A stretch of DNA of 32,000 nucleotides from Wolbachia endosymbiont of Litomosoides sigmodontis. GTDB taxonomy: Bacteria > Pseudomonadota > Alphaproteobacteria > Rickettsiales > Anaplasmataceae. The position numbers and the translations under genes are program-made. Below the pieces are notes generated by a model that did not search any database, was not told the origin of the DNA, and worked only from the letters and a program-made list of their open reading frames with translations. Location: positions 810,001 to 842,000 of the forward strand of contig NZ_CP046577.1 in assembly GCF_013365435.1 (NCBI RefSeq). The letters run 5' to 3'. Below, piece after piece: positions 28,265-31,158 of this stretch; positions within the stretch are counted from its first letter, which is position 1, and every line of letters begins with the position of its first letter.

Positions 28265-29725
28265 ATGGATATACACTTTGTTAACATGTTTAGCTCAAAA
28301 TCCAAAGGTAAGTTCATGCTTTCCATTGGAGAAGAAGGTACAATATTGCTGTATTTTAAAAAAAATACCTTAAATAAAAGGTATTTTGTTAAGGACAAAA
28401 ATGACAAAGCAGTGTCCGACTTAAATTCATGTCTTTCATCTGATAAAAAAGCACCTTTATACTTGGTATTAAACCATGCAGATCAAAATTACTCGCTACA
28501 ATTCATTCCAAGAGTAAATAGAATTAGTGCCTATCTGTCAGCAAAAACGAAGATGGAACATTTCATTCGCAATGATGATATAAGCTCAGCTCTTCTGATT
28601 GAAAGACCAAACAAACTCAACCCAAATTGGTGTTACCTTCTTGTTTCATCAAAAGCAAAGCATTTAGTAGAATATTGGCTGAGTGTATTTATTGAAATAG
28701 GCTCTAATTTTAAGGGAATATTAATGTTTCCTATAGAAATAAATAATATAGTAAAAAAGATTTTTTATAAGGATCTTAATAATTGGAAAATTATAGTGGC
28801 CGCAACCAAAACCGGAGGCTATAGACAAGTAATTTTTAAAGAAAATAAAATGGTATTTACGCGCCTAGTTCCATTTATCAATGATAATTTACCAGGAATT
28901 ATTGCTGGTGGAATATATCAAGAAGTGCAAAATACCATTCGATATTTAACTAAATTTGGTTTAAAAAAAAACGACCCAATTGATCTTTGTATGGTAGTAC
29001 AAGAAGATATTAAAGCTAGTTTATCAGTTATAAATTTTTTAGAGAATAGTGTAAATATATTAACTCCATATGAATTGGGTAAGTTATTGAGGTCAGAATT
29101 AGCTATCAGCGAAAAAGATAGTTTTTGTGATACTATAATCCTATTTCACAGTTCTAAGAATAAGCCAACAGCTGTTTTTTACACAAAAGAAACTAAAGAA
29201 TTTTACTTATTAAATTACTTCTATCTGAACTCTCCTCGAATTTTCCTATATTTTGCTTTAATTCTAATTACAATCAACATTCTTTGTCTGCTAAATTTGC
29301 ATTCAAATTTTAATGTTGCTAATAAGCTATTAGCAAAAAAGGAAGCTTTAGACAAGCAATTAGCAAAGCTAAGTCAAAGCTACAACATAAAAAAAATAGA
29401 TGAACTTTACGATTTTATTAATATCAATAATATTCTATCGAAGATGGAATATTCTCCCCTTACACAGGTTAAATATGTAGAAAAGTTAAAAGTATCAGAT
29501 GTAAAGCTTCAATCGTTTGAGTGGAATTATAATGAAGCAAAAAATTACATTACCACGACTTTAAGGTTTAATTTGGAGCCTGGTAAAGATGTTTCTTACC
29601 AATATAAGGAATTACAAAAAAAATTAAACAATAATTTTCGCACCTATGATATTAGCATTTCTAGCTTGCCCACTACTAAAGAGCAAAATATACCTATTAA
29701 CATTAAAATAGGAGAGGCTATGTAA
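28265..29725 (+). CDS. bitopic membrane protein with PilM-PilN fusion / GspL-like architecture (hypothetical)
   Basis: 486 aa. A ~310-aa N-terminal soluble region has two strand-rich segments reminiscent of the actin-like PilM/GspL cytoplasmic fold (MLSIGEEGTILLYF and IIVAATKTGGYRQVIFKENKMVFTRLVP). One TM helix follows (IFLYFALILITINILCLLNL), then a coiled coil (KLLAKKEALDKQLAKLSQ) and a ~120-aa alpha/beta C-terminal domain. The true start may be the ATG at 28286 or 28316. The call rests on architecture, not verified homology. Confidence 0.75.
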   Translation: MDIHFVNMFSSKSKGKFMLSIGEEGTILLYFKKNTLNKRYFVKDKNDKAVSDLNSCLSSDKKAPLYLVLNHADQNYSLQFIPRVNRISAYLSAKTKMEHFIRNDDISSALLIERPNKLNPNWCYLLVSSKAKHLVEYWLSVFIEIGSNFKGILMFPIEINNIVKKIFYKDLNNWKIIVAATKTGGYRQVIFKENKMVFTRLVPFINDNLPGIIAGGIYQEVQNTIRYLTKFGLKKNDPIDLCMVVQEDIKASLSVINFLENSVNILTPYELGKLLRSELAISEKDSFCDTIILFHSSKNKPTAVFYTKETKEFYLLNYFYLNSPRIFLYFALILITINILCLLNLHSNFNVANKLLAKKEALDKQLAKLSQSYNIKKIDELYDFININNILSKMEYSPLTQVKYVEKLKVSDVKLQSFEWNYNEAKNYITTTLRFNLEPGKDVSYQYKELQKKLNNNFRTYDISISSLPTTKEQNIPINIKIGEAM

Positions 29726-29729
29726 GCTA

Positions 29730-30338
29730 ATGAACGTTTTTCAGTTAAAAAGAAGAGCTGCAATTCAATTTATATCGTATCTGTTATTATCTATTGGATT
29801 AATAGGATTACTAATATACGCTAGTATTTATAATAGAAAAGCCTATAATAAAAACCAGAGTACCATTGATGAAATACGTTCTATTAATTTGCAAATCACT
29901 GATATTCAAAAAAAGGAAGTTGCTTTAGATAAAAACCTAGATTTATGGCAAAAAATTTCCTCTTCAAATTTACACAGCAGCAGATACATTACGAATTTAA
30001 ATTTTGAGCTTAGCAAGTTATATAAAAAGTATTGCATATTAAAACCTGAAATATCAATCTCTATACCTGAGGAAATTGAAATATATAACAAAAGTAAACA
30101 CACAAAAGTAATCAAGAGTGAAGTAAACCTAAATTTAAGTTCAATCAGCGATAAGCACATTTTTTTATTTTTACAATCTTTTCCAAGCCTGCCTGGTTAT
30201 GTTATGATCAAATCTCTTGTTTTGAATAAAGAGAGAAATATTGATGCTGCAACTATGAATCAGATTTTAAATGGCAATATGATAGAAATAGTAAAAGCTA
30301 ACATGATCTTCGACTGGTATACTATACTAAGTAGATGA
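29730..30338 (+). CDS. bitopic membrane protein with PilO/GspM-like architecture (hypothetical)
   Basis: 202 aa, starting 4 nt after the upstream stop, with GGAGAGG 13 nt upstream. It has an N-terminal TM helix (FISYLLLSIGLIGLLIYASIY), a coiled coil (IDEIRSINLQITDIQKKEVALDKNLDLWQK), and a C-terminal domain. In that domain, HIFLFLQSFPSLPGYVMIKSLVLNK and the terminal MIEIVKANMIFDWYTI mirror the PilO pattern (F...L..LPR.V.i..l.l ... L.m.a.akTYRY). Confidence 0.75.
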   Translation: MNVFQLKRRAAIQFISYLLLSIGLIGLLIYASIYNRKAYNKNQSTIDEIRSINLQITDIQKKEVALDKNLDLWQKISSSNLHSSRYITNLNFELSKLYKKYCILKPEISISIPEEIEIYNKSKHTKVIKSEVNLNLSSISDKHIFLFLQSFPSLPGYVMIKSLVLNKERNIDAATMNQILNGNMIEIVKANMIFDWYTILSR

Positions 30339-30342
30339 AATA

Positions 30343-31158
30343 ATGAAAATAAAGCTATTTTTTACTTTTACCTTACTTTTCTTCAATGCTAGCACATACT
30401 GTAATTGTAAAGATATTATAGAAAATATAGAAACTTGCAAAGAATATACTTGTCAACAATACATTGATAATGAAGACTTTATCGAGCATAAAATATTAGG
30501 CTTAAACAGCAAAGATTTATGTATATATATAGAAAAACAGGATAATGATGAGATGGTTTGTCATCATTCTAAGTATGGAATGATGATAGAGAAAAAATAT
30601 TTTGAAAGCTTTTTCAAAGTTAGCAATCAAGAAATCAATGATTTTATCGATATAGCAAAACAGCGTGCAAAGGAATGTTTTTTTATAAGCAATCAAAAGG
30701 CAAGCTACACAAATCGTGACGATATAATAAAGGAAGCAGTAGAGAGTGAATTTGATACCTTATTACGATATAATGATATAAAAAGCATTTTTTTTGATAA
30801 GGAATCAGTCAATAAAATAGTTAGTGAAATGGAAAAATTTTACCTACGATCCTCAAGAGCTGTAAAAGAGGAGATATTAAGTAATTTTAACAGTAAGGTA
30901 GTAAACTTAGACTCAATTTTATATTTCTCCCCTGACACATGGAAAATATGGGTAAATAGAAAACTGTTTACAAATACTAAAGATTTAAAAGTCCACTCAG
31001 TAACCGAAAATTATGTAACTTTTGTATGGATTATAAACCAAAAAATGACAAAAAAACAACCTAATAATTCTAAAAATATATACCTTGGACATGGGAATGT
31101 TATGTTTACACTTTATCCGAAACAAAAATTTGACTTAGATAACTTATCTATTAAATAA
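30343..31158 (+). CDS. secreted Cys-rich protein with PilP/GspC-HR-like C-terminal segment (hypothetical)
   Basis: 271 aa, starting 4 nt after the upstream stop. It has a signal-peptide-like N-terminus (MKIKLFFTFTLLFFNASTYC) that is not a canonical lipobox, and seven Cys in the first ~115 residues. The C-terminal strand-rich segment (LDSILYFSPDTWKIWVNRKLFTNTKDLKVHSVTENYVTFVW...NVMFTLYP) resembles the PilP/GspC homology-region pattern. Confidence 0.75.
   Translation: MKIKLFFTFTLLFFNASTYCNCKDIIENIETCKEYTCQQYIDNEDFIEHKILGLNSKDLCIYIEKQDNDEMVCHHSKYGMMIEKKYFESFFKVSNQEINDFIDIAKQRAKECFFISNQKASYTNRDDIIKEAVESEFDTLLRYNDIKSIFFDKESVNKIVSEMEKFYLRSSRAVKEEILSNFNSKVVNLDSILYFSPDTWKIWVNRKLFTNTKDLKVHSVTENYVTFVWIINQKMTKKQPNNSKNIYLGHGNVMFTLYPKQKFDLDNLSIK

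Follow-up and report, generated by a model that had tools for sequence, protein, structure and literature searches.

A divergent PilM-PilN-PilO-PilP-like gene trio of Wolbachia, probably a functional relic of an ancestral Rickettsiales type IV pilus

Sec, Tat, a type I system and the rvh type IV secretion system make up the known envelope machinery of Wolbachia, Ehrlichia and Anaplasma. Three adjacent genes in the genome of the Wolbachia endosymbiont of Litomosoides sigmodontis (wLs) raise the question of whether these bacteria also keep part of a type IV pilus, and in what capacity. The genes lie near the end of a stretch of 32,000 nucleotides (positions 810,001 to 842,000 of contig NZ_CP046577.1, forward strand), which we refer to as the window. 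A first-pass annotation, made from the sequence alone, described them as an orphan cluster laid out like the inner-membrane platform of a type IV pilus (PilM-N, PilO, PilP) or of a type II secretion system (T2SS; GspL, GspM, GspC). It offered three explanations: a very divergent relic, a repurposed envelope scaffold, or an unrelated complex of convergent architecture.

The three open reading frames (ORFs), here called genes 1, 2 and 3, occupy positions 28265-29725 (486 amino acids, aa), 29730-30338 (202 aa) and 30343-31158 (271 aa) of the forward strand. As had been described, they are packed with 4-nt spacers, GCTA between genes 1 and 2 and AATA between genes 2 and 3. Their products are identical to the wLs proteins QKX03188, QKX03189 and QKX03190, all of which carry the annotation "hypothetical protein" in the source record, and scans with Pfam and NCBIfam returned zero matches for any of the three. 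The analysis below supports the interpretation of these genes as a PilM-N/PilO/PilP-like trio. They probably encode a very divergent form of the alignment subcomplex that a type IV pilus has in the inner membrane. On this view the trio is a functional relic of the pilus of ancestral Rickettsiales, and it has probably been repurposed.

Results

Gene 1 is a member of a large family without a name. A HMMER profile search of 1.8 billion representative proteins found 795 relatives at an expect value (E) <= 1e-3 and 284 at E <= 1e-30, nearly all of them full-length (480-650 aa). Homologues recovered by a word-indexed search came from every Wolbachia supergroup sampled, from Mesenet and from Ehrlichia ruminantium, and the named members of the family include Anaplasma capra, A. 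bovis and Neoehrlichia. Scanning of species-representative genomes yielded 80 loci, mostly from metagenome-assembled genomes (MAGs) labelled Rickettsiales, Midichloriaceae or Rickettsiaceae, with a few from other Alphaproteobacteria. ORFs were called in all 80 loci and clustered by BLASTP, and pil neighbours were counted by tblastn in the loci with room for them. The clusters of genes 1, 2 and 3 had 78, 75 and 74 members, respectively, which occurred together and in the same order in about 75 loci; the gene 2 homologue always came directly after gene 1, and the gene 3 homologue always after gene 2.

In most of the MAG loci the trio lies among pil genes. PilC was encoded directly upstream of the trio in 68 of 72 loci, PilB upstream of it in 62 of 65, and a PilT-like protein downstream in 38 of 61; a secretin-like match lay nearby in one locus out of 80. 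The upstream ATPase (600-860 aa; for example, L022:6186-8765) has a T2SSE domain and a MshEN domain, which binds cyclic di-GMP, and its closest NCBIfam model is PilB, while the upstream platform protein (400 aa) carries the T2SSF domain of PilC. Downstream, on the opposite strand, two ATPases score above the cut-off of the NCBIfam PilT/PilU model TIGR01420 (423 and 477 versus 319 bits) and are accompanied by a tetratricopeptide repeat (TPR) protein. Prepilin-type (N_methyl) proteins adjoin the trio in three Midichloriaceae loci.

The synteny with pilB-pilC is the decisive evidence that the trio is a pilus scaffold. Given this linkage to pilB-pilC and pilT, we assign the trio to the PilM-N-O-P slot of a retractile type IVa pilus with some features of the mannose-sensitive haemagglutinin (MSHA) pilus. 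The pilM-N-O-P-like gene order seen at first reading is borne out in free-living and basal relatives, where the trio sits between pilB-pilC and pilT/pilU. Its place in the pil operon of MAGs also fits the published inference of an ancestral type IV pilus in Rickettsiales, with repeated losses in the crown families (PMC9352585; PMC10847448). The MshEN domain, together with a Rickettsiales secretin family that corresponds to KEGG mshL in 90% of its members (Schoen et al. 2022), hints that this ancestral pilus was MSHA-like.

These results bear directly on the possibility that the trio is a novel envelope complex, unrelated to pili, whose PilMNOP-like layout arose by convergence. The absence of sequence-profile membership in the PilM/N/O/P or GspL/M/C families is what speaks for it. 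The linkage to pilB, pilC and pilT, however, is near-universal over about 70 distinct MAG loci, the cytoplasmic domain of gene 1 has the specific fold of the PilM/GspL/FtsA subfamily, and gene 3 shows a weak similarity to the homology region (HR) domain of GspB (both described below). The fold of gene 1 and the pil synteny effectively exclude this third of the original explanations, and we regard convergence as extremely improbable.

Directly after the gene 3 homologue, nearly all MAG loci encode an ABC-type ATPase of about 240 aa (for example, L022:13253-13969). It is not found beside the Wolbachia and Ehrlichia trios, and a Pfam scan of loci L022, L053 and L061 detected no permease gene next to it. 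It recalls PilH, the ABC ATPase encoded in the pil cluster of Myxococcus. The presence of this ATPase prompted us to consider a LptC-LptA-LptB reading of the cluster, which we rejected: the ATPase matches DrrA/GldA-type models best and reaches 118 bits with LptB, against a cut-off of 240, genes 2 and 3 have no LptC or OstA matches, and the trio is overwhelmingly linked to pilB, pilC and pilT.

In an alignment with 20 homologues (21 sequences), conservation of gene 1 begins at Met8 of the ORF that opens at 28265, and for this reason the true start is most likely at 28286, giving a protein of 479 aa (28286-29725, forward strand) that matches RefSeq WP_175838225.1; residue numbers below refer to the 486-aa ORF. 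The AlphaFold2 model of the protein has a mean predicted local distance difference test (pLDDT) score of 81.5. It opens with a predicted cytoplasmic actin-like domain of the PilM/GspL type (28286-29185), delimited by the pattern of strands and helices assigned by DSSP over residues 15-305, where pLDDT is 80-95. A single transmembrane (TM) helix follows at 29231-29311 (residues 323-349), at the only Kyte-Doolittle peak of the protein (2.43; SPRIFLYFALILITINILCLLNLHSNF), within a long model helix spanning residues 308-372. Next to the membrane, at 29312-29440, the model helices 308-372 and 378-392 form a putative coiled-coil-like stalk. The chain would end in a periplasmic domain (29456-29719) with (alpha-beta-beta)x2 topology, in which DSSP assigns helices at residues 398-407 and 443-457 and strands at 413-423, 428-437, 462-465 and 476-485 (pLDDT about 81). 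This topology we take to be that of PilN, PilO, GspL and GspM.

Foldseek searches of the Protein Data Bank (PDB) with the gene 1 model placed PilM of Pseudomonas aeruginosa, Thermus thermophilus and Myxococcus xanthus at the top (E 4e-10 to 1e-8, probability 1.00). The PilM structures matched were 5eoy and 5eou (E 4e-10 to 1e-9), 5eq6, 2ych and 3jc8_M. The targets covered best were the cytoplasmic domains of GspL/EpsL, namely GspL 4pht_X (TM-score 0.65), EpsL 1yf5 and 5tkw, with TM-scores of 0.62-0.65 when normalised to the target. Taken together, the leading PilM, FtsA and GspL/EpsL matches span E 4e-10 to 1e-7, at probability 1.00. The model thus assigns the cytoplasmic domain of gene 1 to the actin-like (ASKHA) fold of the PilM/FtsA/GspL subfamily. 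Because this fold is joined to one TM helix, a stalk and an (alpha-beta-beta)x2 domain, the predicted layout is that of GspL or of a PilM-PilN fusion in one chain, and so the description of gene 1 given by the first-pass annotation (a folded domain of about 300 aa, one TM helix, a stalk and an alpha/beta domain) holds. In the alignment the usual phosphate-1 Asp is replaced by Ser or Val (SIGEEG), which hints that a nucleotide-binding residue was lost, as in GspL.

FtsA structures (3wt0, 4a2a, 7q6i and others) come next in the Foldseek list at E 1e-8 to 1e-6, almost as good as PilM, and share with gene 1 the fold of the actin-like subfamily. This would suit a different identity for gene 1, as an FtsA-like or other cytoskeletal or divisome factor, with the trio being an envelope or division module unrelated to pili. 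But the extension of TM helix, stalk and (alpha-beta-beta)x2 domain is a feature of GspL and PilN; FtsA lacks a TM helix, a periplasmic stalk and the (alpha-beta-beta)x2 domain, is tethered by a C-terminal amphipathic helix and is encoded in the context of the dcw cluster. Moreover, the gene 1 homologue follows pilB-pilC in 62-68 of 65-72 related loci, and no divisome genes adjoined the trio in any locus inspected. A divisome role is accordingly very hard to credit.

Gene 2 (29730-30338, forward strand) encodes a 202-aa protein that we describe as a PilO/GspM-like bitopic protein from its ORF, its TM segment and its paralogy to gene 1. By hydropathy it has a single, N-terminal TM segment (residues 9-35; 29754-29834, forward strand), and family conservation outlines a periplasmic domain at 29985-30335 (forward strand). 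When a profile of 50 members of the gene 2 family was compared by hhalign with the C-terminal module of gene 1, the two aligned over 145 columns with a probability of 95.8% (E 8e-9), and the reversed module used as a control gave 2%. Most of the signal came from the membrane-proximal stalk (92.9%, E 3.7e-7). Gene 2 thus resembles the C-terminal module of gene 1 as a paralogue would, much as PilO is expected to resemble PilN, or GspM the C-terminus of GspL, and the fold of gene 2 would be PilO/GspM-like. The orthologue in E. ruminantium was found at E 4.5e-39. No PilN, PilO, T2SSM or other Pfam model matched gene 2, and its profile gave coiled-coil noise only against PDB sequences, or nothing when trimmed to the periplasmic domain. 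The PilO/GspM layout proposed at first reading is therefore retained as far as the TM segment and the paralogy are concerned, and less firmly for the globular part.

Gene 3 (30343-31158, forward strand) encodes a predicted periplasmic protein of 271 aa in the PilP position, as judged from the ORF, the gene order and the AlphaFold2 model. It has a short hydrophobic N-terminus, seven Cys residues, of which six fall within residues 20-73, and a beta-rich C-terminus. The model is mediocre overall (pLDDT 66.6), with two reasonably confident parts, residues 21-90 (about 80) and 181-271 (67-90). The first of these belongs to a Cys-rich N-terminal domain delimited by alignment and model (residues 20-115; 30400-30687, forward strand), with conserved Cys at positions 20, 22, 32, 37, 60, 73 and 112. 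Among the sequences examined the domain was present only in Wolbachia and Ehrlichia, E. ruminantium included, and MAG homologues have Pro/Ala-rich linkers in its place; Foldseek found no significant PDB match to its fold. Conservation across the gene 3 family covers about residues 121-271 of the Wolbachia protein. A second gene 3 profile search added only two further non-Wolbachia sequences.

The second part (residues 181-271; 30883-31155, forward strand) is a C-terminal beta-domain of 7-8 strands, in which W200 and Q261 are invariant across the family, and is a candidate HR domain of the PilP/GspC/GspB type. PF16537 (T2SSB) was the only Pfam family to match more than two of 50 gene 3 members, doing so in six at sub-threshold level (best E 0.0026), and it was again the only repeated match when the C-terminal domain was trimmed out (3 of 22, best E 4.8e-4). 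The family profile also matched GspB (PDB 4wfw) weakly, at E 0.018-0.044. The HR domain of GspB shares its fold and its binding to the secretin N0 domain with GspC-HR and PilP (PMC9239104). It is plausible from these matches that gene 3 encodes an HR-domain protein. Matches of the gene 3 profile to FN3/titin were judged spurious, as they were confined to a short "V-T-L-x-W-x-P" motif. Of the features first ascribed to gene 3, the hydrophobic N-terminus, the Cys-rich domain and the beta-rich C-terminus are there, and the two grounds for calling it PilP-like are its position and the weak, sub-threshold similarity to the GspB HR domain.

The gene 3 product of E. ruminantium (L082:12067-12609) has 180 aa and keeps the Cys-rich domain and the conserved middle segment (KSIFF). 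The HR-like C-terminal domain is absent, and no remnant of it was detected in the 850 nt downstream. As gene 3 there lacks the HR-like domain, the sequence suggests that the original link to a secretin is dispensable in Ehrlichia.

We then asked how the trio has fared in Anaplasmataceae. Five further genomes have it intact and just as tightly packed: wBm (479/202/271 aa), wVulC (479/202/262 aa), wFol (479/202/259 aa), Wolbachia OZ034766 (486/202/265 aa) and E. ruminantium (482/208/180 aa). The flanking genes differ among these and wLs. Pairwise Nei-Gojobori ratios of nonsynonymous to synonymous substitution rates (dN/dS) among five Wolbachia were 0.09-0.17 for gene 1, 0.11-0.20 for gene 2 and 0.07-0.19 for gene 3, comparable to those of the neighbouring ssb and dapA (0.08-0.17). 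Both domains of gene 3 are constrained (Cys-rich domain 0.07-0.19, HR-like domain 0.09-0.17), the filarial pair included. The genes are intact, and purifying selection constrains them as strongly as it does housekeeping genes; we conclude that there is no decay of the trio and view it as a functional relic. The loss of motor genes from the locus and the reduced genomes of filarial Wolbachia would fit a decaying, non-functional remnant. Yet none of the three reading frames is disrupted in any Wolbachia supergroup sampled, nor in Mesenet, Ehrlichia, Neoehrlichia or Anaplasma; the genes keep their tight operon spacing, and their dN/dS (0.07-0.20) equals that of the housekeeping neighbours. Decay is refuted at the sequence level and has next to no probability in our estimate. 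The two other explanations first offered for the trio, which travels alone in Wolbachia and Ehrlichia, both stand: a divergent relic and a repurposed scaffold are not mutually exclusive.

Could the trio instead still serve a working machine, either a cryptic type IV filament or a T2SS-like apparatus, whose other parts are encoded elsewhere? As had been stated of the window, no PilB/GspE, PilC/GspF, secretin, prepilin peptidase or pilin gene was detected in its 32 kb, nor was PilT: tblastn with PilB, PilC, PilT, pilins, GspD, HofQ, GspE, GspF, GspO and GspG gave matches at E > 0.1 only. The set of PilB, PilC, PilD, major pilin and PilQ that makes up a complete type IVa pilus was thus not found within the window. 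No pilus gene lay within 6-10 kb on either side of the trio in the five other Anaplasmataceae loci, and the term orphan covers these flanks and the wLs window.

Published surveys provide hints in both directions. In Supplementary Data 4 of Schoen et al. 2022, the PilB, PilC, PilD and pilin families are scored as missing in Anaplasma, Neoehrlichia and Ehrlichia as well as in their inferred ancestor. The same study reports a T4P_pilT-type family (02CW5) from Anaplasma, Neoehrlichia and Ehrlichia. It also assigns a MshL-type secretin family (02CK6) by inference to the ancestor of Anaplasmataceae, although none of the five taxa listed has it. According to a supplement to Lindsey 2020, most Wolbachia genomes encode one protein of 483-495 aa annotated as "type II secretion system protein" or "secretion system protein" (for example WD_RS02220, WP_022626270.1), which is a pseudogene in wBm. 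These records suggest that a PilT-like ATPase, and possibly a MshL-type secretin, survive elsewhere in some Anaplasmataceae genomes.

A cryptic machine could draw on these parts, and in Wolbachia purifying selection acts on the HR-like domain of gene 3, a candidate for secretin binding. Against it stand the scored absence of PilB, PilC, PilD and pilin families from Anaplasma, Neoehrlichia, Ehrlichia and their ancestor, the lack of such parts in the window and around the five other trios, the pseudogene state of the "secretion system protein" in wBm, where, as in wLs, the trio is intact and constrained, and the loss of the HR-like domain from gene 3 of Ehrlichia. Every type IV filament machine known to us needs a platform protein and pilins to work, and this too speaks against a machine of that kind. 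On balance we consider a cryptic machine improbable.

Literature searches, for PilM in Rickettsiales among others, turned up no description of the trio proteins; the nearest is an unlabelled row of the Schoen et al. supplement. There, the unnamed families 01Z70 and 023KA of Anaplasma, Neoehrlichia and Ehrlichia carry a MacSyFinder T4P_pilN flag in about 8% of their members, and they probably correspond to trio genes. Each of these families has two copies in Anaplasma phagocytophilum (Schoen et al. 2022), which suggests operon duplication in that species.

The other genes scanned in the window are housekeeping genes (Dus, PheT, CtaA, biotin carboxylase, GltX, DapD and SdhA), and the source record also names a dihydroorotase and an ankyrin-repeat protein. 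The 2.5 kb between the dihydroorotase gene and gene 1 (25747-28264) contain short overlapping ORFs on both strands and no ORF of at least 100 aa; they showed no similarity to the genes flanking the trio in four other Wolbachia or to pil or gsp proteins, and may be degraded sequence. On the other side, 12 nt past the stop codon of gene 3, lies a tRNA-Arg gene with anticodon CCG (31171-31245, forward strand). In the other Wolbachia examined the trio is followed by ssb or tim instead, and so the downstream junction is strain-specific. Elsewhere in the window, Rfam places Wolbachia sRNA 46 (WsnRNA46) at 15980-16122 on the reverse strand (69.5 bits versus a gathering score of 65.3), wholly within a 383-aa Methyltransf_28 ORF on the same strand (15561-16712). 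Two further ORFs, 243-1565 (forward strand, 440 aa) and 12955-13704 (reverse strand, 249 aa), had no Pfam match at E <= 1e-5. Promoter and terminator scans gave the same counts as shuffled sequence and were uninformative.

Discussion

The above results point to the following picture. Gene 1 would join a cytoplasmic PilM-type domain, through its TM helix and stalk, to a periplasmic PilN-type domain, and would presumably pair with gene 2 through their stalks and periplasmic domains. The conserved middle segment of gene 3 probably docks onto this pair, and its C-terminal beta-domain is probably of the HR type, a class of domain that contacts secretins. As the trio immediately follows pilB-pilC in most of the MAGs, and pilT/pilU are often found downstream of it, it would originally have linked the cytoplasmic motor and platform of a retractile pilus with the channel in the outer membrane. 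In Anaplasmataceae, as seen at the Wolbachia and Ehrlichia loci, the trio appears to have been cut loose from the motor genes, and gene 3 of Wolbachia and Ehrlichia would have gained a new Cys-rich periplasmic domain. The present role is most likely that of a pilus-independent, heteromeric scaffold that is anchored in the inner membrane and reaches across the periplasm.

Among known systems, the PilM-N-O-P subcomplex of type IVa pili (P. aeruginosa, M. xanthus, T. thermophilus) shares with the trio the actin-like PilM fold, a PilN-like module, a PilO-like paralogue, a subunit in the PilP position, the M-N-O-P gene order and, in the relatives, the linkage to pilB, pilC, pilT and pilU. It differs in that the trio has PilM and PilN in one chain, is matched by none of the PilM_2, PilN, PilO and PilP models and has no secretin gene after it, in that gene 3 lacks a lipobox and bears an additional Cys-rich domain in Wolbachia and Ehrlichia, and in that motor and pilin genes are unlinked in Wolbachia and reported absent in other Anaplasmataceae.

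GspL-GspM-GspC (with GspB) of the T2SS offers the one-chain layout of GspL, in which a TM helix connects an actin-like domain in the cytoplasm to a ferredoxin-like domain in the periplasm. GspM also resembles the C-terminus of GspL as gene 2 resembles gene 1, and T2SSB is the sole recurrent Pfam signal of gene 3. In contrast to the T2SS, however, relatives of the trio carry PilT/PilU retraction ATPases, a hallmark of the type IVa pilus; there are no T2SSL, GspL_C or T2SSM matches and no pseudopilin operon or GspD beside the trio, and the cytoplasmic domain of gene 1 has about 300 aa, compared with 224-238 aa in the matched crystallised GspL/EpsL.

In the MSHA pilus of Vibrio cholerae, MshI is a fused PilM-PilN-type protein and is followed by a PilO-like MshJ and a PilP-like MshK. 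No match to Msh models was seen at the sequence level. Further points of similarity are the MshEN domain of the PilB homologue in MAGs, the TPR protein linked to the cluster and the assignment of the secretin family to mshL. Points of difference are the order in MAGs, with pilB-pilC before the trio, and the orphan ABC-type ATPase that follows the trio in place of mshL.

Several observations weigh against the interpretation of the trio as a pilus scaffold that has outlived its pilus. The Pfam and NCBIfam models of PilM, PilN, PilO, PilP, GspL, GspM and GspC matched neither the wLs trio nor its MAG relatives, even at E = 10, and the same was true of PilM_2, FtsA, PilN and T2SSL/GspL models for wLs gene 1 and 26 diverse members of its family; the gene 1 profile had no match among PDB sequences either. 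Alignments by hhalign with single E. coli sequences of HofM/N/O/P and GspL/M/C/B were no better than with reversed controls, although single-sequence templates have low power. Structural comparison succeeded with gene 1, as a PilM/FtsA/GspL fold, and failed with gene 3, for which the whole model retrieved no PilP, GspC or GspB structure from the PDB by Foldseek, and nothing significant. Even for gene 1, FtsA fits as well as PilM, and the fold by itself cannot separate the two families. The globular parts of genes 1 and 2, compared on their own, gave a weak signal (17.5%, E 0.0014) that still stood out from the reversed controls (E 0.2-0.3). PilP is typically a lipoprotein, but gene 3 lacks a lipobox, having Tyr (...A/T-Y-C) rather than Gly, Ala or Ser before the first conserved Cys. 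Judged from the alignment, its N-terminus looks like an ordinary short signal sequence, and neither the lipoprotein anchor of PilP nor the TM anchor of GspC and GspB is seen. Finally, the absence of the motor in wLs refers to the window, and published data leave hints of a PilT-like ATPase in Anaplasmataceae and of the 483-495 aa "type II secretion system protein" in most Wolbachia.

One possibility, which we consider rather unlikely in this specific form, is that Anaplasmataceae, a family described as devoid of type IV pili, kept nothing of the ancestral machine but the alignment scaffold and rebuilt it as a pilus-independent trans-periplasmic complex, with the Cys-rich domain added (in Wolbachia and Ehrlichia) and the HR candidate dropped in Ehrlichia, and that it may still use a surviving PilT-like ATPase or MshL-type secretin. 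Cryo-electron tomography of wMel has shown a periplasmic "hat-like" particle, tethered to the inner membrane and with two cytoplasmic densities, that is unassigned (PMC12407924). To name the trio complex as a candidate for this particle is pure speculation.

For Wolbachia and its relatives, the results give a structural and evolutionary identity to three conserved "hypothetical" genes of important symbionts and pathogens. They also put forward a candidate, open to testing, for an envelope-spanning complex not yet described in these bacteria, which are difficult to manipulate. For the family, they define the "missing" alignment proteins of the type IV pilus in Rickettsiales-type alphaproteobacteria. 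Because the standard PilM/N/O/P models miss these proteins, genome surveys may under-call or mis-score type IV pili. The trio would represent a natural case of a pilus or secretion sub-assembly that outlives its machine, and as such it bears on how machines are dismantled and repurposed during genome reduction.

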